In this document: in pieces, positions 19,368 to 28,399 of the stretch
Position numbering within the stretch: the first letter of the stretch is position 1
Layout of the letters: the number at the start of each line of letters is the position of its first letter
NCBI GenBank assembly: GCA_963769425.1
Contig: CAVYLP010000002.1
Coordinates: 1 to 64,000, forward strand
Source of the DNA: Candidatus Bathyarchaeota archaeon
GTDB taxonomy: Archaea; Thermoproteota; Bathyarchaeia; TCS64
Length of the DNA: 64,000 nucleotides
Reading direction: 5' to 3'
Position numbers and translations under genes: made by a program
The notes under the pieces: model-generated
Database searches by the model: none
Told to the model about the DNA's origin: nothing
What the model saw: the letters and a program-made list of their open reading frames with translations, nothing else

Positions 19368-20531
19368 GTGGCATCGGTTTTGGCTTCACGCTACAGAGAG
19401 CTGGGAGTTGACGTGAGCAAGCCCGGCGTTGAGCGGTTCAAGGGCGGCATAGACGACCTATTCCCCGGCGCGTTCTGCGTTGTCTACCGGGACCCAAGCG
19501 ATACTTCCATGGGACTCGTCCTCCACACCGACTCGGCGGGGAGCAAGCCGATTCAAGCGTACCTCATGTACAAGGAGACCGGCGAAGCATCCTGGCTCAG
19601 TGGGCTCGCGCAGGACGCCCTCGCAATGAACATAAACGACGTCCTCTGCGTCGGCGCCGAGCCGGTGAGCTTCGTGGACTACGTTGCCTACAACACGCTG
19701 AACATCAACCGAGTCGCGATGCTCACCGCCCTCGCCGACGGATTCACCGAGTGTAAGAAGGTGCTCGCGGATGAGGGCTCCTCCATCGCATTCGCGGGGG
19801 GCGAGACCGCGGACCTACCAGACCTCCTCAGGACTCTTGATGTCTGCGTCACCATCCACGGGCGTGTAAAACTAAACAAGGTGATCTCGGGGGAGGCGGT
19901 TAAGCCAGGGGACGTCATCATCGGCCTTAGGAGCGGCGGGAAGGCCCGCTTCGAGAAGCGCGTAAACAGCGGGATAATGAGCAACGGCCACACCCTCGCG
20001 AGGACCAGTCTCCTCTCACCGAGTTACCTTAAGAAGTACCCGGAGATATCCCACCCCAGCAGGGGGAGGTACACGGGGAGATTCAGGCTTGATGACACAC
20101 CGGCGGGCCTCGGCGAGTCGGTGGGGGAGGCGCTACTACACCCCACTCGGCTATTCTCACCGATAGCATCGGCGATCCTCAGGGAAGTAGGCACGGGCGT
20201 CCACGGCATGGTCCACAACACCGGCGGTGGGCAGACGAAGTGCCTACGCGTCGGGAGTAATGTAAGGTACATCAAAGACAGCCTACTCGAGCCCGACCCC
20301 GTCTTCCACCTCATCAAGGGCGAGTCCGGCGTCGAGTGGAGGGAGATGTACCAGGACTTCAACATGGGCGTCGGCTTTGAGGTCACAGTCGGCCAAGGGT
20401 GTGTTGAGCGGGTCCTCCACGTAGCCGAGGGATTCGGCGTCGGCGCGCAGGTAATAGGGCGATGCGAGAAGTCCAGCGGGAAGAATTCCTTGGAAATTCG
20501 GTCGCCTTACGGCAATTTCCGATACGAATAG
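19368..20531 (+). CDS. purM: phosphoribosylformylglycinamidine cyclo-ligase (AIR synthase)
   Basis: Y..LGVD, D.AG.K, AMNIND, GGETAD, SNGHTLAR, HNTGGG, FNMGVG. Confidence 0.88.
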   Translation: MASVLASRYRELGVDVSKPGVERFKGGIDDLFPGAFCVVYRDPSDTSMGLVLHTDSAGSKPIQAYLMYKETGEASWLSGLAQDALAMNINDVLCVGAEPVSFVDYVAYNTLNINRVAMLTALADGFTECKKVLADEGSSIAFAGGETADLPDLLRTLDVCVTIHGRVKLNKVISGEAVKPGDVIIGLRSGGKARFEKRVNSGIMSNGHTLARTSLLSPSYLKKYPEISHPSRGRYTGRFRLDDTPAGLGESVGEALLHPTRLFSPIASAILREVGTGVHGMVHNTGGGQTKCLRVGSNVRYIKDSLLEPDPVFHLIKGESGVEWREMYQDFNMGVGFEVTVGQGCVERVLHVAEGFGVGAQVIGRCEKSSGKNSLEIRSPYGNFRYE

Positions 20532-20996: not shown

Positions 20997-21753
20997 GTGG
21001 CAAGTTACTTATTCGAAGGCGGGCACCAGTCCACCGTTCCCACTTTGATCGGCGAAGGTAGAGCCGAGTTCATTGAGAAGCTCATCAATTCATGCAGGGC
21101 GCTCCACAGGGAGGTGCCCTCCGTCCATAACCCCAACCCGATGGGCCACTTCAGCGCGAGGATACCCGGGACGGACGAGAGAGTAATCAAGCCCCGAGAC
21201 GTGGCGTGGAACAAAGTCACCGATGATGATCTGATCACCTATACCCTCGACTATCGCAAGGTGTCGGGGCCCGACTACGAGATAGTCGAGATACCCATCC
21301 ATATCGAGTGTATCATAACAGAGCAGACGTTGCCGCAGTTGTACACACCCACCAGACCTATGCCACCCTCATGGGGACGCTCGGTCTCAAGTTGGAGCTA
21401 CTAGACCCGAGTACACTCGCTTTCACCAACGGGATACCAACCTACGACGAGGTCGATGACTCGACGTACTTCACCAAGGAGTGGGAACCCTGATACGGAA
21501 CGAGACTCAGGGAAGAATCGCAGCGAGGAAGATCGGCTCCTCAAGCGCCCTCATACTGAAGGCACACGGCCCTATCATCGTCGGGAGAAGCGTAGAGGAG
21601 GCATGCATGCTTACGATAGCCCTCGAGAACGCGGCGAAGTCACAGATAATGGCTGCTATGGTCTGCGGAAGCAGGCCCCCGATCGAGAGCTTGGGCATCG
21701 CCCCGCGCACCCCGTCCCCCAACCTCTGGAGATCGCTGCTCAGATCGTATTAA
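20997..21753 (+). pseudogene. class II aldolase/adducin family, frameshifted twice
   Basis: GHFSAR, E.PIH, VVHTH, LILKAHG motifs spread over three ORFs; shifts near 21310 and 21483. Confidence 0.8.
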
Positions 21754-21988
21754 TCATCGAGAATGAGACGCGGGGTGGGATTCCGATGCGGACGCGTCCG
21801 TGAAAGATCCCTGCGCCTAGATAACTCTCCGAAACGATATTTTTAGACGTTACCAAATCCAAGCTCGTGAACACGCATTAAAACGGGTCACTTCTTCCGC
21901 GGATGTTTATTGCTGACGCTTCCAATTTTCAAATCGGTGACCAACCTTATCCGAGTATAAAGAGACGTTAGCCGACATCAAGAAGACC

Positions 21989-22336
21989 ATGGGAGTCGTC
22001 CTAGATCAGTTTGAGGCGATCCCTAAAGACACCCTCCCACACGAGTGGGCGGAGATGAAGGCGTACTCCTTCGGTGAGACGAAGATCCCTGCCAAGTACC
22101 GTGAGCTCATGGGGCTAGCCGTGGCTGCATCGATTAAGTGCCCCTACTGCGTCCACTTCCACACCCGCGCGGCGAGGATGAATGGTGCGACGGACGAGGA
22201 GATTGCCGAGACGGCTTTCCTCACCCGCTTCACGACGGGGTGGAGCTCGATCCTTCATGCCTCGGACATCGACCTCGAAGATTTCAAGAAGCAATTCGCC
22301 GAGGTCGAGAAGTATATGAGTAAACACTCTAAATGA
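21989..22336 (+). CDS. carboxymuconolactone decarboxylase / AhpD-like protein
   Basis: IPAKYRELMGLAVA, KCPYC..FH, GATDEEI. Confidence 0.9.
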   Translation: MGVVLDQFEAIPKDTLPHEWAEMKAYSFGETKIPAKYRELMGLAVAASIKCPYCVHFHTRAARMNGATDEEIAETAFLTRFTTGWSSILHASDIDLEDFKKQFAEVEKYMSKHSK

Positions 22337-22430
22337 GGATGTGGCGTTTTCAACGCAATAGCAATCTCCGTGATAGACGTATTTTTTCGGTTTAATTGAT
22401 GATCACTTAAGTCCCTACTAAACAGTTAGA

Positions 22431-22451
22431 GTAGTCTTAGTGTAACTCTGA
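22431..22451 (+). repeat. cassette-boundary repeat copy 1
   Basis: GTAGTCTTAGTGTAACTCTGA. Confidence 0.85.
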
Positions 22452-22871
22452 CTCCACCAGACTTATAACAGTGAAATATGAAAGACGCGCGCTACCTTTT
22501 TACAACGTGATCCTTAAAAAAATTAAGCTTTTATCGGGGCATCTTCAACCTTTTTGGGCGCGCGTAGAAGCCCATACCCTTTCAATTCCTTCTTATGGGC
22601 TTTTCTATCATGATCCTTCTTCTTAGTCATTCTACTCGTTGGCATACTTACAATTCACCCTTTCATGATATCTACGCGTGCGTGGCTATTATAGGTTCAG
22701 GACATATAGGAGCAGCGGGTGAATATGGTCCTTTATTTTTCAGATTATCTGAAACCTGACAAGGGAAGATTTGAAGATTTTCATAACTATGAACATGGGA
22801 CAATGTTTCCACTTTACCTCGTGAGGATGGGAGCACGTGTTTCAGGGCTCCTTTTCTCTAGTCGAAAATCA

Positions 22872-22893
22872 TAGTGCCTCAGTGTTACTCTGA
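22872..22893 (+). repeat. cassette-boundary repeat copy 2
   Basis: TAGTGCCTCAGTGTTACTCTGA. Confidence 0.85.
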
Positions 22894-22969
22894 TCTTACT
22901 GCACGTATATGCGGTTTAACATGCATGCTCAGACTAACACTATAGCCCCCCGAGGGGATAGCCGACGAG

Positions 22970-23956
22970 TCAGATACCGAGCATCTTGGCCGGGTTCACC
23001 GATAAAATCGCCTGCTTCTCCGAGCAAGTCAGACTCCCCAAGCTGTTGATCCAGTTAACTGAGTCCACCATCTCCATGGGGCAGGGGTAGTCCGTCCCGA
23101 ATACGACCCTATCGATCCCCACAGTGTCTATCAGGAATCGCAGAGTCGGTTCGCTGAAGGTGGCACAGTCGTAATAGAAGCTCCCCACGTAATGGCTCGG
23201 AGGCTGGGGGATCGACTGGCGGGCATCCTCACCGGCAGAGTACTCGACCATGTAGTCCAGCTTCTCCGCTTCCCAACCCTTGTCCATTCGTGCAACCCCG
23301 AAAGCAACATAGCCGCCTCCGTGTAGCAGACAAATCTTCAGCTTGGGGAAGCGATCGATGATCCCACCCTGCACGAGAGCCCCGAAGGTGAGGGTCCGCT
23401 CCACTAGGTTGCCCACGGTGTTCTCCAGGAAGTAGCGAGGGATCCGCTGCGCCACGATCGTGCTGCCCTGATGAAATTCAATGACGGCTCCCAGACGCTC
23501 GGCGGCCTCCCAGAATGGAAGGAACCGCGGCTCGTCCAGGGTATTCCCATTGACGTGGTCCTTTATAGTGACGCCCTTCAGCCCGAGATCGGCGACCACC
23601 CGCTCGAGCTCAGCCACCGATGCCGCCACGTCCTGCATGGGAAGAATGCCCAAGCCCACGAACCGGTCGGGATATTCATCGACCATAGCCGCCACCTCGT
23701 CGTTGCAGGCTCTTACCGCTACCTTGGTGAGCTTCGGGTCCCGGTCGTATTTGTTAAAGTCCCCGTAGACGGTGAGCGCCTGCATTCCCACCCCGAGTCG
23801 ATCCATGTCGGCGATCCGCTCCTCCAGTGTCCAATGGTTTCGGGGGTTCTCAAGCTCACCGTGCTCGGCGGTGAACCCGTGCCAACTGTGACCGGCTCGC
23901 ACCGCCTCCAGGAATGGACGCGGGTTCACATGGTTGTGGACATCGATGACTTTCAT
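22970..23956 (-). CDS. amidohydrolase family protein (ACMSD-like decarboxylase)
   Basis: IDVHNH, PDRFVGLG, HGGG, FGTDYP. Confidence 0.92.
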   Translation of the reverse strand: MKVIDVHNHVNPRPFLEAVRAGHSWHGFTAEHGELENPRNHWTLEERIADMDRLGVGMQALTVYGDFNKYDRDPKLTKVAVRACNDEVAAMVDEYPDRFVGLGILPMQDVAASVAELERVVADLGLKGVTIKDHVNGNTLDEPRFLPFWEAAERLGAVIEFHQGSTIVAQRIPRYFLENTVGNLVERTLTFGALVQGGIIDRFPKLKICLLHGGGYVAFGVARMDKGWEAEKLDYMVEYSAGEDARQSIPQPPSHYVGSFYYDCATFSEPTLRFLIDTVGIDRVVFGTDYPCPMEMVDSVNWINSLGSLTCSEKQAILSVNPAKMLGI

Positions 23957-24029
23957 TCGTTTCTCCTCACGGAGCCGCCAGATGCTCCAGCTCAAGTTAA
24001 CTGAGTCGCAGACGCCTTAAAATATAGAG

Positions 24030-24050
24030 GTAGCCTCAGAGTAACTCTGA
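24030..24050 (+). repeat. cassette-boundary repeat copy 3
   Basis: GTAGCCTCAGAGTAACTCTGA (perfect 7-1-7 palindrome). Confidence 0.9.
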
Positions 24051-24146
24051 CCCCATTGGACTTATATACAGTACAATATGAAAGATAAACGCCTCATATG
24101 CGGAAAAGATTACATAAGTACACTATACTAACTTGAGTGATGAGCT

Positions 24147-24431
24147 TTGGAGTCCACTATAATCGGAGTTATGGATAGAAGCCTCGACCTCTTCATAGGG
24201 GAGGACAACTTGGATAGGCTGGTTAAAGGCTGGGCTGTTTGGAAGGAAAACGGGGTAATCGATTCGGTGATTGACGCTGTGATTGGTCAGATATGGTCTT
24301 ATTTGGAGAATCAGTGGGCATTGCTTCATGGCAACCATGTGACATCTGATCAGGAGAGGGAGTTCACGAATTGGATGCGTAGGAATAGCTACCTCATTAG
24401 AAGTAAAGTTGAACTCGCCTGCGAGAGATGA
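24147..24431 (+). CDS. hypothetical protein
   Basis: 94-aa ORF, AT-richer codon usage, no recognised motif. Confidence 0.55.
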   Translation: MESTIIGVMDRSLDLFIGEDNLDRLVKGWAVWKENGVIDSVIDAVIGQIWSYLENQWALLHGNHVTSDQEREFTNWMRRNSYLIRSKVELACER

Positions 24432-24503
24432 AGTCCGCCTCTCCGCAATTCTGATCTACTTCTAATCATGGAAGAAAGAAAAAGAGGGGGGTTTAGATTG
24501 AGG

Positions 24504-24851
24504 CTATTTGGCTTCTTGGAACCAGTAGAATGTTGCAGGCTCGTTTCCCACGACCCAGCCATCATGCCCCGGCGGAATATCGACCACATCACCCGGACCC
24601 ATATCGATTTCCTGGCCATCGTCAGCTTTCACATGTAATTTACCTGACAACAATACTCCGAAATGGTGCATTTGACAAGACTTCGTTCCAGCGATGGCCT
24701 TCTGGTCTTTTGACCATCGCCACCCAGGTTGATACGTTTGCTTCAGAACAGACATATCGCCTATTTTGATGGTGTCTACCCTTGAATTTGGAGGCGTCTT
24801 CGTCTCATCAGGTTTCTGGAAATTCTTCTTTTGAAGAACCAAATTTTTCAC
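24504..24851 (-). CDS. cupin domain protein
   Basis: QPGWRWS, C..HH.G..SG, IPPGHD.WVVG.EP. Confidence 0.92.
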   Translation of the reverse strand: MKNLVLQKKNFQKPDETKTPPNSRVDTIKIGDMSVLKQTYQPGWRWSKDQKAIAGTKSCQMHHFGVLLSGKLHVKADDGQEIDMGPGDVVDIPPGHDGWVVGNEPATFYWFQEAK

Positions 24852-24967
24852 CCGATATTTTTTTCTGAATCCTAGATATTAAACGTATAATTTTCTGCGC
24901 GCGTGTTTGATTAGATACTCCGCGACCTTCGATATAGAAGAAACTAAAACGATGTAAGCATGTGATT

Positions 24968-25255
24968 TTAGATTTCTTTGGTTATCTTAATCATCAGGTC
25001 TGGAGAGAAGGCTCTGAATGTCTCTATTTTCAACAATCCCTTGCTTCCCCAACTAAGAACTGCCTTAGCCATCGTCTCTTCATCAGGAGCTTCCATTATC
25101 GAAACAACGTTATAAGGTCCATTCGTAAAAACTAAATTAGTTATCTTTACCCCGAATGATTCGAAGACACTCCTACTCTCCTTAATTGATGCTTCAAGAT
25201 CTTTGATGGTCTCGATTCGTTTCTGAGTAAACTTTCCTAGCATAACGAATTGCAT
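24968..25255 (-). CDS. GYD domain protein
   Basis: F.MLGKFT, GPYNVVSIMEAPD, ETFRAF. Confidence 0.85.
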   Translation of the reverse strand: MQFVMLGKFTQKRIETIKDLEASIKESRSVFESFGVKITNLVFTNGPYNVVSIMEAPDEETMAKAVLSWGSKGLLKIETFRAFSPDLMIKITKEI

Positions 25256-25380
25256 TATTTTTTCACCTGTTTAGGCGTTTGGAATCGTGAATAATAAACA
25301 AGTGTCGCAAACTCTTGTGTGAGCTGTGATGAGATTAAAACTCCTCAATAGGAATTGAACGGGCGCGCACTCACTGGACT

Positions 25381-25400
25381 TAGCCTCAGTGTAACTCTGA
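25381..25400 (+). repeat. cassette-boundary repeat copy 4
   Basis: TAGCCTCAGTGTAACTCTGA. Confidence 0.9.
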
Positions 25401-25656
25401 ATATTTCACACAAAACATCTGAGTATTTTCACATCTAAATATTTAGATTATTAATATTTTAAAAATAACCCTTAAATTCAACTTTTTAAAGCCATTCGAT
25501 ATTTGGCGTTGAGGTTTCTCAGGATATCATGGATTCGCTTTCGAGGAGAAGACTGTCGCAGGTAAGCCGAAGTTTACAAAAAGGTATGCATGTAAATAGC
25601 AAAAATTTAACCTGTTCCATCTTGTAATAAACGACAGTTTACAGATGTGGAGAGAT

Positions 25657-26163
25657 ATGATGACAAAAATTACCAACAATCCAAAGATCACAAACGAGGA
25701 ACTAGTCAACGTCAACAGAAGCGCCATCGAGCACCGCGCCACCTGGATGGGCCTCACCTACATGGAGGGGAAGAAGGCGGGTGCAGACGCGGAGAAGATT
25801 GCGCGAGCCGCCGTTGCCCAGACCGGGGGCATGCACGGCGCCGGATTCAAGTCCAAGATGAAGACTGCGGGAAAGATCGAGGAGTTCGCAGACGTCTTCC
25901 TCACGCCGCTGGGCATGAAGACCTTCGAGATGGAGGTCAAGACGAAGAACAAAGACGCCCTCGAGATCCAGTTCCACTACTGCCCACTCGTCGCCGCGTG
26001 GCTCAAGGCAGGCATTCCCAAGGAGGAGATCCCCACGCTTTGCGACATAGCGATGGATGGCGATCGCAACATCGCGAAGACCGTCGGCGCAGAGTTCAAA
26101 CTAGGCAAGACCATCGCCGCCGGCGACGCCATCTGCGAGGTCAATTTCTACAAGAAGAAGTGA
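25657..26163 (+). CDS. L-2-amino-thiazoline-4-carboxylic acid hydrolase family protein
   Basis: RSAIEHRA, FHYCPLV.AW, LCDIAMDGD, GKTIA.G...C. Confidence 0.85.
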   Translation: MMTKITNNPKITNEELVNVNRSAIEHRATWMGLTYMEGKKAGADAEKIARAAVAQTGGMHGAGFKSKMKTAGKIEEFADVFLTPLGMKTFEMEVKTKNKDALEIQFHYCPLVAAWLKAGIPKEEIPTLCDIAMDGDRNIAKTVGAEFKLGKTIAAGDAICEVNFYKKK

Positions 26164-26330
26164 TCAAACCGGATGCATGGGAGACGCGTCTGCCTAGTTA
26201 ATTTCATTTTAGTCGTCGAAAGAGGTTTTCTCGATATTTTTATAGTTTAACGATCTCTCGTTGCCCTACATCTACCGCTTTTTCAATTACGCGGCATTCA
26301 AGTTCGAGCCACTATAAAACATTCAAACGG

Positions 26331-26351
26331 GTAGCCTCAGTGTAACTCTGA
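26331..26351 (+). repeat. cassette-boundary repeat copy 5
   Basis: GTAGCCTCAGTGTAACTCTGA. Confidence 0.9.
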
Positions 26352-26555
26352 TCGCTCACGAATCGCTCTAATGCCTTCACATCATCGGCTGACAAACCTA
26401 TGAGCCGTCAGGATAAATAGGTTCCCCTAATTTTCATTTATAATAATGTATTAATTTTGTCTATTTAACCCTCGATTAACTAAGTGCAATTCAATATCCC
26501 TTAAAATTGCAGAAATAAATCCCAAGATGATTGCTTCATGGAGCACTAGCGCAGA

Positions 26556-27158
26556 TCACTGGATCATTATGCTCCGCCCGGAGCCCCTGTCTCGCTTCCT
26601 CTTGATTATCGTCTCAAGCACACCGTTCCTGTATGTGCTCGTCGCCGATTCGTCGTCCACCTCGAAGGGCAGCTCCAGCTCCTTGTGGTATCTGTGCTCC
26701 GGGTTCGTGACGTCGATGGTGAGCGATCTTTCCGTGGCGAAGAGCTGGATGTCTTCCTTCTCGACGCCGGGGAGCTCGGTGATAATCTTGACCTGTTCTG
26801 GCTCCTGGATGACGTCTACGAGGGGCTCACGCGCCTCCTGGAGGTTGAGTTGCCTCTTATCCTCCCCCGCGGATGGGTTCGGCTTCATGTTACCGAACTC
26901 GCGGACGACCGGCTTCCCATCCGGCCCTACCTTGACCGAGTAACCGTAGACGAATGGGCCGTACTCCTTCCTCACGGAGCCGTCGGGGAGGACATGCTCC
27001 TGCGCGAGATCATCAGGCACTTCCGCCTCGATCTCTTTGAAGAAGTCTGCCATCTCCTTCTCCATCTCCTCGACCATCCGCTCGAGGTCGGGGAAGAAGA
27101 AGGGCGACCCACGCTTTCTGCGCTTCTCCCACTCCTCCCAGAAAGACAAGTGCTGCAC
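26556..27158 (-). CDS. hsp20: archaeal small heat shock protein Hsp20
   Basis: GPFVYGYS..GPDGKP..REFGN, REPLVDV, ELPGV.KEDI, YRNGVLE. Confidence 0.95.
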   Translation of the reverse strand: MQHLSFWEEWEKRRKRGSPFFFPDLERMVEEMEKEMADFFKEIEAEVPDDLAQEHVLPDGSVRKEYGPFVYGYSVKVGPDGKPVVREFGNMKPNPSAGEDKRQLNLQEAREPLVDVIQEPEQVKIITELPGVEKEDIQLFATERSLTIDVTNPEHRYHKELELPFEVDDESATSTYRNGVLETIIKRKRDRGSGRSIMIQ

Positions 27159-27237: not shown

Positions 27238-28399
27238 ATGCCGATACTAGTGGCCTACAACGAGATAGCCCTCAAGAGCAGGTACGTCCGAGCGACATTA
27301 GAACGGAGGCTGGCAGCGCAGATCGAGTTCGTTCTGAGGAGGGAAGGTTATAACGAGGTTAGGGCTAGGAGGCAGTTCGGCAGGATAATAGTCAGCGGCG
27401 CGCCCGCGGAGGCTGCGAAGGTCGTAGCAAACATCTTCGGAGTGGTCCACGCCATCCCTGCGGAGGAGTCTAGTTCCGAGATCAACGATGTGGTAGCACT
27501 CGCCGTTAAGGTAGCAGGCACCGCACTGAAGCCCGGTTCAACATTCGCTGTCAGGCCTAAGGTCGTTGGCGATCAGCCGTACGGAAGCCATGATCTCGCC
27601 ATCAAAGTCTGGGGCGGCAATCAACGAGGCTCAAAAGGACAGAGGCGTGAAGGTGAACCTGACCTCACCCGACATTACAATTGGGATCGAGGTGAGGGAT
27701 AATGACGCCTACGCCTACTCAGGCAAGATCGATGGCGTAGGTGGCCTTCCATACGGATCCCAGGGCCGGGCCGTCTCCCTATTCAGCGGTGGCATCGATA
27801 GCCCGGTCGCGACGTGGTTGATAATGAAGCGGGGAGTTGAGACCCTCCCACTCTTCATGGACCAGACCCCATACGTAGGGGAAAGCTACCTCGTTCGAGC
27901 TAAAGAGACATTCACCTGGATGTCAAAGTACGCCCCAGCCGAGGGCTTCGCCCTATACTCGGCACCGATGGGCCCAGTCATGGAGAGGATACTAGATTCC
28001 CCCGAGCCCAGGTTCACCTGCGTCCTCTGCAAGCGCTCTATGTACAGGATAGCGGAGGAGTTCTGCAGGCACAAGAAGGCGAAGGCGATAGTGACGGGTG
28101 AGAGTATGGGGCAGGTGGCGAGCCAGACACTCGACAACCTATTCGTCCTAGACTCGGCCGTCAGTATCCCCCTCCTGCGTCCCCTCATAGGGCTCGACAA
28201 GGTTGAGATAGAGGACAAGGCAAGGATCATAGGCACCTACTCGCTGACCGCCCATAGGGTCGAAGGGTGTAAAGTTGTACCATCCACACCCGCCACGACG
28301 AGCAGAGTGGAGAAGATCGAGAAGATCGAGGCCTACCTTGGGTTGGTTGACCTCTGCGGTGAGGTCGCGAAGAAGATTGAGCGACTTTCCACGGGCTAA
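27238..28399 (+). pseudogene. thiI: tRNA 4-thiouridine synthase ThiI with one frameshift (real or sequence error)
   Basis: YNEIALKS and THUMP domain, then SGGIDSPVA, CVLCKR, TGES.GQVASQT, RPLIG; frame change near 27610. Confidence 0.85.

Follow-up and report, generated by a model that had tools for sequence, protein, structure and literature searches.

We analysed a 64,000-nt window of Candidatus Bathyarchaeota archaeon (contig CAVYLP010000002.1, positions 1 to 64,000) in which an island between the purM-like and hsp20 genes is divided into modules by a direct repeat of about 20 nt. The repeat coincides with the 3' end of a predicted C/D-box small RNA (sRNA) gene, and it is likely that it serves as an attachment (att) site within that gene, where an array of four to five cassettes was built by site-specific recombination acting in trans. 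A preliminary description of this DNA had already read the repeats as recombination sites separating serial modules. This central inference is supported by breakpoints at the repeat in relatives, by an insertion polymorphism between two metagenome contigs, by the re-use of one module and by a recombinase gene that abuts the site in one genome; the sRNA identity of the site is the key addition to it.

A pattern search of the window returned five copies of the repeat, all on the same strand and within 0-2 nt of the positions first reported for them. Copy 1 lies at 22432-22451 (+; TAGTCTTAGTGTAACTCTGA, 2 mismatches), copy 2 at 22874-22893 (+; GTGCCTCAGTGTTACTCTGA, a variant with GTG for TAG, plus GTTAC, 3 changes), copy 3 at 24031-24050 (+; a perfect 7-1-7 palindrome variant, 1 change), copy 4 at 25381-25400 (+; same sequence as copy 5) and copy 5 at 26332-26351 (+), the attB-like copy at the 3' end of the sRNA gene. 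At up to 3 mismatches the window contains six matches to the pattern, the sixth being the reverse reading of palindromic copy 3; 0.03 matches per window are expected by chance, and none of 100 shuffles reached six. The preliminary description had noticed no comparable copy elsewhere in the window, and this extends to the whole genome (2,551,316 bp in 6 contigs, 91% complete; labelled G000 here, with other G labels for the genomes of relatives and L labels for loci or contigs). An 18-mer at up to 2 mismatches occurs only in the island (backwards control, 0), and all five genome matches to the 20-mer at up to 3 substitutions lie inside it; 4 substitutions add four chance-like matches outside. 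A transcription-factor operator of a dispersed regulon was rejected, as no copies lie outside the island, and so were the ends of an insertion sequence (IS) or a miniature inverted-repeat transposable element (MITE), as all copies are direct and only 5-6 are in the genome.

Copies farther from the sRNA gene are, roughly, more decayed: copies 5 and 4 are identical, copies 3, 2 and 1 have 1, 3 and 2 changes, and a probable decayed sixth copy, c0, is about 5 edits from the core. The latter lies at 21815-21832 (+; GCCTAGATAACTCTCCGA), 12 nt past the stop codon of an aldolase remnant, and aligns with an intact distal copy and its arm directly past the aldolase gene in L221, a contig from a relative. 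Background density gives c0 a p of ~0.01 for a 250-bp gap, which is a rough value only, as the fuzzy-regex run missed known copies at a low edit threshold. The junctions at copies 1, 2 and 3 are not assembly artefacts of this metagenome-assembled genome (MAG), because contigs from other samples (runs X1-X4) bridge copy 1 (X2), copy 2 (X1, X2) and copy 3 (X3, X4); no listed X1-X4 piece bridges copy 4 with 31 nt on both sides. Parts of the window without contig cover in these runs were given no weight, and the joints 26165/26331 (side 23) and 26390/26549 (side 30), which are weak, were not used.

Copy 5 makes up the last ~20 nt (D guide, D box and the 3' half of the terminal stem) of a predicted C/D-box sRNA gene, rather than being the free-standing palindrome first proposed. 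The gene spans about 26332-26391 (-), downstream of hsp20, and was recognized by alignment, covariation and rRNA pairing; a putative TATA-like box, read by eye at 26413..26419 (-), lies ~26 nt upstream of its 5' end and is kept in relatives. The conserved block in relatives is ~60 nt long and the repeat motif is its left end, from which it follows that copy 5 belongs to the sRNA gene itself, as its 3' end, and that copies 1-4 are duplicates of those 20 nt only. The near-palindrome of the repeat is accounted for by the D box together with the start of the D guide.

Archaeal C/D-box sRNAs have the consensus motifs RUGAUGA for box C and CUGA for box D. In the window sRNA a terminal stem is followed by a C box (AUGAUGU, with U as its last base) near the 5' end, a D' guide, a D' box (GCGA), a C' box (GUGAGCG), the D guide AUCAGAGUUACA, a D box (CUGA) near the 3' end and the closing half of the stem. 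Across an alignment of 42 distinct homologues, the C box, the D box and the two guides show little or no variation, and the D'-C' loop varies in length (3-7 nt) and sequence; 12 nt separate C from D' and 12 nt separate C' from D. As parsed from this alignment, the internal boxes read NNGA for D' (CUGA in some g8 genomes) and GUGAUGA in g8 or GUGAGCG in g1 for C'. Pair 5-64 of the terminal stem is G-C in 24 homologues, A-U in 14, G-U in 3 and unpaired in 1, a covariation score reached by 0 of 500 shuffles, and 92.9% of cells are paired, compared with 19-49% in slid controls. The D guide forms 10 contiguous Watson-Crick pairs with positions 2016-2025 of the organism's own large-subunit (23S) rRNA, which 29 of 5000 shuffled guides equalled, and the D' guide forms 8 contiguous pairs ~25 nt downstream in the same rRNA region. 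No curated Rfam family matched the sRNA in a scan of 22000-27000, where the best hit was GlsR7 (CD-box; 19 bits against a gathering score of 75, E 0.82). A 17-mer of the site is present in 23 genomes of 41 relatives and the 18-mer in 65 of the 79 genomes of the order, in both cases nearly always once; only 6 genomes have two or more copies.

The same D guide and D box, with other D' guides and with the C box on the same strand, were also seen in records from Ignisphaera/Desulfurococcales and Thermoproteota/Nitrososphaerota (L063, L081, L093, L096-L098, L117, L118, L132, L157, L158; L072, L101, L154, L159, L160, L162, L172), and the sRNA target site seems, from these matches, to be conserved well beyond Bathyarchaeia. 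Separately, the plus strand at 22393-22451 gives a weak C/D-box-like match (TtnuCD34, 18.2 bits, E 7.8), with UGAUGA at ~22400 and the CUGA that ends copy 1, which is probably due to chance.

Comparison with relatives shows that the interval is an insertion hot spot. In 16 distinct loci with purM, the sRNA gene and hsp20 on one contig, the purM-to-site distance ranges from 10 to 6596 bp (10, 42, 43, 119 and upward) while the hsp20-to-site distance stays within 83-342 bp, indicating that the variable DNA lies exactly at the site. In the tightest cases (L092), the site directly follows the purM stop codon. The preliminary description had proposed aligning the purM-hsp20 interval across relatives; in all 12 sRNA-bearing relative loci, DNA homology to the window begins at 26329-26334, the left edge of copy 5, and the breakpoints thus fall at the repeat. 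On the other side of the island, homology stops near 21738, past the aldolase gene. Unitigs of three other samples end 29 nt past the start of the site, as expected if their assembly graph, which we take to have k=31, branches at the site's left edge. None of the outcomes named beforehand as contrary to a recombination site was found: the motif is not spread through the genome and is not an IS end, and the synteny breakpoints coincide with it.

Several further features were seen at this locus. MAG contigs L069, L127, L156, L185 and L186 start or end within 2-20 nt of the left edge of the site and G084 has two contigs ending at an sRNA copy, which points to strain heterogeneity there within samples. 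The hsp20 side of the sRNA gene is a second variable spot in G011, G009 and G012, where the gap between hsp20 and the sRNA promoter holds 2.8-6 kb of genes (L045 6322-9905, L051, L046), in G011 an M24-like peptidase, DHDPS and a nitroreductase. At ~5596-5625 of L105 (G083:C60), only ~26 nt homologous to the 3' end of purM separate the sRNA copy from unrelated DNA; purM of G083 is on a different contig, 2.1 kb from a non-sRNA copy. The idea that G011:C9 is a high-copy plasmid with attP (coverage 178.7 compared with 17.0 for C11) was rejected, because the contig encodes PheRS, Nre and metabolic functions and its ends do not overlap; a mis-binned piece of chromosome is the probable explanation. 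Six exact 17-mer matches in viral contigs have neither the flanking TAGCC nor arms, and we read them as chance.

Insertion at the site can be seen directly by comparing strains. A metagenome scan with the core and the G000-type right arm gave 53 stretches, five of them with at most 5 mismatches in the preceding 10 nt; of these five, L210, L214, L221 and L240 carry the site and L225 is without it. In L221 the order is aldolase, a site copy, 5.2 kb, the sRNA copy, hsp20, ThiI, ThyX and orf359 (93% amino acid identity to the window). L214, a contig from a different sample, is 99.31% identical to L221 over 5511 nt but longer by 1029 bp inserted at the sRNA-proximal copy, with flanks that match L221 exactly and a perfect 23-nt repeat at its ends (the 20-nt core plus AG and T). 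This insert has a G+C content of 36.9% and a single open reading frame (ORF) that encodes an AbiV-family defence protein (Pfam 1.7e-15; NCBIfam 58.7 bits, cut-off 27), and a recombinase is absent from it. The pair therefore presents occupied and empty forms that differ by an insert and one repeat, in relatives and not in this genome itself, and mobility is accordingly demonstrated in relatives. Because the difference is clean and the repeats are perfect, the 1029-bp unit appears to have moved as such. Direct repeats bound the inserts and one of them rebuilds the target gene, as in an att site. The position of the L214 insertion and the decay gradient in the window together suggest that new modules enter at the sRNA-proximal copy.

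Modules are also found again in other surroundings. Module 1 (22452-22873) recurs in L210 between two copies of the site, with other neighbours on both sides, and is conserved in both L210 and L240; one of these two copies in L210 is the copy-2 variant (GTGCC..GTTAC), with the same left flank as in the window. In G016, one 1251-bp Pyridox_ox_2 module lies between the sRNA copy and a second copy. Two copies in G011 share 45 nt, made up of a 25-nt left arm and the core, and nothing more.

We searched for a recombinase that could act at the site. As first noticed, the window contains no integrase: neither a PF00589 nor a PF00239 protein was found in it. The only PF00589 protein of G000 is 418 aa long and encoded on contig C4, with no tRNA gene adjoining, and no serine recombinase was found in this genome. 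An integrase gene adjoins the att site in G082, where a gene encoding a PF00589 protein of 409 aa begins 22 bp past the 3' end of the sRNA gene, with hsp20 on the other side; none adjoins it in the window, L214/L221, G016:C8 or G011. Beyond the integrase gene of G082 come AbiEii, another recombinase-like gene, an ATPase and, at the contig end, Cas1 (L188, G082:C15 10032-18472). The second copy is on another contig (L184, G082:C8 1-4636), next to a 150-aa ORF and purM and preceded by small ORFs and CRISPR repeats. This layout matches the expected order of purM, distal copy, element, integrase, sRNA copy and hsp20; no sequence overlap was found between C15 and C8, the adjacency of which is deduced from purM/hsp20 synteny, Cas1 and the CRISPR repeats. 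The G082 island may be a defence island delivered to the sRNA site.

XerA, suggested earlier as the recombinase, finds no support: three tested recombinases score 63.1, 47.7 and 125.1 bits with the XerA equivalog model NF040815, all below its cut-off of 220, and the best score with the IntI model TIGR02249 is 23.9 bits against a cut-off of 265. A single integrase family common to all array-bearing genomes was considered and rejected, since none of three families is so distributed. The G082-type recombinase occurs in 25 of 79 genomes and adjoins the site in G082 only, the G016:C9 type (330 aa) occurs in 7 of 79, with an orthologue in G012 that is without the TetR-cupin-site segment, and the G000:C4 type occurs in 8 of 79 and is absent from G011, G016, G082 and G083. 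Relatives of the G000:C4 protein were also seen at some distance from the site. One, in G076 (L198, G076:C262 38-1271; 27-33% identity), is encoded divergently from hsp20, ~0.7 kb from the sRNA gene, and one with 47% identity is found in G002, 9 kb away from the site; two of nine homologues in the order are on the sRNA contig.

The modules could alternatively be the eroded remains of full-size integrative elements, each once with its own integrase, that inserted in tandem at the sRNA gene and were later deleted in part, a history that we regard as unlikely. The large G082 element at the sRNA gene is consistent with it, as are the 5.2-kb insert of L221, which holds a DDE transposase fragment and mixed cargo and no integrase, and module 3 of the window, with three genes and no internal site; parts of a review of archaeal tyrosine recombinases describe tandem integration and the loss of integrase after integration (PMC8371274). 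However, L214 and L221, which are otherwise 99.3% identical, are set apart by a clean one-gene insertion between perfect repeats, module 1 (~0.45-0.55 kb) is found again as a copy-bounded unit, G016 has its single module between two copies, and a tblastn search of the island with four recombinases detected no integrase fragments.

The architecture of the site bears on how strands are exchanged. Identity between copies has a fixed right boundary at ..AACTCTGA (..TCTGA) in all extra copies, in at least 8 genomes or contigs, and the extra, element-borne copies have a second GAGTAA-like half-site 17-22 nt rightward. The right arms of copies 1-3 are homologous to one another, to those of two G016 copies and to L240; that of copy 1 spans 22452-22486 (~35 nt). 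In L120 and L110, the purM stop codon is followed by TGGCCTC or TGACCTC, the insert and then the full site (the 7-nt remnant in L120 was first spotted by eye and then confirmed), and in L210 identity starts at CAGTG. The proximal copy of G082 starts with AAGCC and its distal copy with TGGCC, like most of its genus, which fits an exchange to the right of those bases. Together, these breakpoints suggest that strand exchange probably takes place in or next to GCCTCAG, the asymmetric core of the preliminary description. The core can be parsed as inverted arms in two ways, and the L120/L110 and L210 breakpoints speak for GCCTCAG as the place of the overlap. When 10 stretches of core plus arms were folded as DNA, no significant attC-like hairpin resulted (z -2.6 to +0.76), with only palindromic copy 3 standing out.

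This architecture also helps to judge whether a dedicated recombinase is needed at all. Circles with an sRNA end could join by homologous or microhomology recombination, with the sRNA gene as the sole conserved sequence beside variable DNA. The arrays in G000, G011, G016:C8 and L214/L221 have no recombinase linked to them, and the repeat length varies from 7 nt (L120/L110) through 20-23 nt (G000/L214) to 45 nt (G011), both in keeping with such joining. It is nevertheless a rather improbable route, since identity always stops on the right at one fixed place and not at varying points along the 60-nt gene, the copies borne by elements have arm features in common (the rightward half-site and the homologous arms of G000 and G016), and an integrase gene abuts the site in G082. 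Finally, although the core is near-palindromic, several copies lie 15 nt from TATA-like boxes and any plus-strand RNA spanning a copy would share 20 nt of complementarity with the sRNA, it is most improbable that the copies are functional motifs, either a local transcription-factor operator or sequences pairing with the sRNA 3' end in transcripts, given that the motif is missing from the rest of the genome, that all copies have one orientation, that core conservation in 65 genomes is accounted for by the sRNA itself and that the copies match insertion boundaries and presence/absence polymorphism, which an operator does not predict.

Site-specific recombination at the sRNA gene, as we propose it, would proceed as follows. 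The att site would be the last ~20 nt of the conserved single-copy sRNA gene between purM and hsp20, and DNA circles with a matching site would insert at the sRNA-proximal copy, presumably through a crossover made by a tyrosine recombinase in trans. Every insertion would restore an intact sRNA 3' end and leave one added direct copy, and the site borne by the element would bring a right arm with the second GAGTAA-like half-site. At least four and probably five such insertions would have taken place in this genome, resulting in an array of small integrase-free modules of differing composition that carry perhaps the CMD-family gene, the 40-aa ORF, the amidohydrolase gene, the hypothetical/cupin/GYD genes and the ATC hydrolase gene.

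A number of observations weigh against this model. No recombinase is tied to the site in G000, and its C4 protein has no close relative in the array-bearing genomes G011, G016, G082 and G083. Across the order, only three recombinase genes lie within 2 kb of any copy (in G082, G016:C9 and G076), and the one in G076 is beyond hsp20, on the far side from the site. A second copy is unrecognisable in most genomes with DNA between purM and the site; when 12 single-copy intervals were tested for a distal copy, the best match was equalled or exceeded by no more than 3 of 200 shuffles in one interval only (L100, 3/200). The amidohydrolase gene lies near the sRNA gene without a second site in G017 and G012, the non-sRNA copies of G011 (C9, C99) lie between ordinary convergent metabolic genes, and the three genes of module 3 are in mixed orientation with no site between them. 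Alternative neighbours in other samples break 9-52 nt off the cores (22940, 23979, 25368/25372) and not inside them, and neither excised circles nor an empty site came to light for this genome.

The island is anchored on the left by the conserved purM-like AIR synthase gene (19368..20531, +; Pfam AIRS/AIRS_C) and on the right by hsp20 (26556..27158, -; Pfam HSP20), which is upstream of the sRNA gene on the same strand. The modules of the array are 0.44-1.35 kb long, and the G+C contents of modules 1-4 are 41%, 58%, 43% and 48%, compared with 56.5% for the window. The outermost cargo is a CMD-family gene (21989..22336, +; Pfam CMD 6.6e-20), whose module is perhaps the oldest; the segment 21738-22431 has homology in none of the relative loci compared. 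The interval first described as gene debris is the conserved module 1, with a 40-aa basic ORF (22523-22645, -; from translation), and the cargo of the other intervals is as first described. Module 2 carries an Amidohydro_2 gene (22970..23995, -; Pfam 4.8e-43), likely starting at the ATG at 23957, with a TATA-like box at 24018-27 (a promoter read by eye); its orthologues (85-90% amino acid identity) lie near the sRNA gene in G017 and G012. Module 3 carries genes for a hypothetical protein of 94 aa (+), a cupin (-) and a GYD protein (-) at 24147..25255, and module 4 an ATC_hydrolase-family gene (25645..26163, +; Pfam 5.9e-21).

We also made several observations in and beside the island. The class II aldolase region at 20997-21803 consists of two ORFs (135 aa and 115 aa) with a Pfam match to part of the profile, and probably represents a disrupted gene where the variable region has its inner edge. 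Beyond hsp20, thiI (27238-28399) is represented by two overlapping ORFs in different frames (27238-27702 and 27566-28399), whereas its counterpart in G008 (L039) matches both parts in one frame, adjoining; the split reflects a frameshift in this genome or else an error in its assembly. GCGCGC occurs at 22487, 22558, 24897 and 25363, that is, four times in the 4.6-kb island (0.87 per kb, compared with 0.26 per kb genome-wide), each time in an AT-rich spacer close to a module border. GCGCGC(GC) runs likewise lie near copies in G005, G011, G012 and G083, and the other-sample breakpoints at 25368/25372 coincide with one GCGCGC.

Genes for tRNA and tmRNA are classic landing pads for mobile DNA. As with the elements that target them, the att core here covers the 3' end of a small RNA gene that is conserved and present in single copy, each insertion restores that gene, the inserts have direct repeats at their borders and stack up at one locus, and an integrase gene lies beside the RNA gene in G082 and is absent from the other units; the difference is that the target is a C/D-box sRNA gene and that the units are mostly ~1 kb with one gene. 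In bacteria, tandem accretion of integrase-less derivatives is described by the cis-mobilizable element (CIME)/accretion model. By analogy, the system appears to work like tRNA-gene-targeting elements with tandem accretion, and its small integrase-free units resemble an integron. Modules of ~0.5-1.4 kb lie between recombination sites of the same orientation, as in integrons, including the archaeal ones covered in parts of Ghaly et al. 2022; the newest-looking copies are nearest the fixed platform site, the accessory cargo includes the defence gene AbiV, and the cassettes hold no recombinase. In contrast to integrons, no IntI and no significant hairpin were found, the attC pattern RYYYAAC/GTTRRRY is absent by inspection, as the preliminary description had stated, the platform is an sRNA gene end and not an attI next to intI, and the genes lie in both orientations, at least one with its own promoter-like box. 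Elements that exploit Xer/dif, and pdif modules, are bounded by short recombination sites and use a recombinase encoded elsewhere. The modules described here share both features, but without an XerA equivalog or the 11-6-11 dif layout, and with the site in an sRNA gene and not at the replication terminus. The system is therefore neither an integron nor Xer/dif.

The archaeal attB sites named in parts of the tyrosine recombinase review are in tRNA genes, protein-coding genes and intergenic regions, and non-coding RNA is not named in those parts (PMC8371274). The att core of an Enterococcus phage, in passages of its description, lies within ffs, the gene for 4.5S RNA, and resembles the present site as a ~20-27-nt core inside a non-tRNA small RNA gene (PMC12540744); that case concerns a bacterial prophage that encodes an integrase of its own beside attP, and the present one an archaeal C/D-box sRNA gene and arrays of small modules. 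Sections of Lui et al. 2018 (PMC6009581) report duplication, guide swapping and MITE-like sRNA elements for C/D-box sRNA genes and make no mention of integration. They likewise place sRNA genes at gene ends or in unstable regions and describe partial guide copies, but here the sRNA gene is the fixed target and it is foreign DNA that moves. Within the literature searched, a limited collection of main texts, nothing was found that joins C/D-box sRNA genes with an integrase or integration sites, and a C/D-box methylation-guide sRNA gene was not named as a landing pad in any domain.

As tRNA genes do, a guide that must pair with rRNA and is conserved to the base across the order offers mobile DNA a stable single-copy address. 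With slightly less than even confidence, we further suggest an integron-like but unrelated platform in Bathyarchaeia, in which the sRNA 3' end docks self-expressed cassettes of ~0.5-1.4 kb with the help of a trans recombinase that is neither IntI nor XerA. The target would be invariant because it must pair with 23S rRNA, and cassettes, each with its own site of ~60-110 nt and with metabolic cargo or anti-virus genes such as AbiV, would be inserted, shuffled and lost. The purM-sRNA-hsp20 interval is a marker for strain-level surveys of gene flux in Bathyarchaeia metagenomes, and genetic tools may be able to use the 20-nt core as a docking site. If small integrase-free units do move as cassettes, they would represent a second route to gene-cassette arrays, independent of integrons, in an abundant uncultured archaeal lineage in which such arrays would already include a defence gene.

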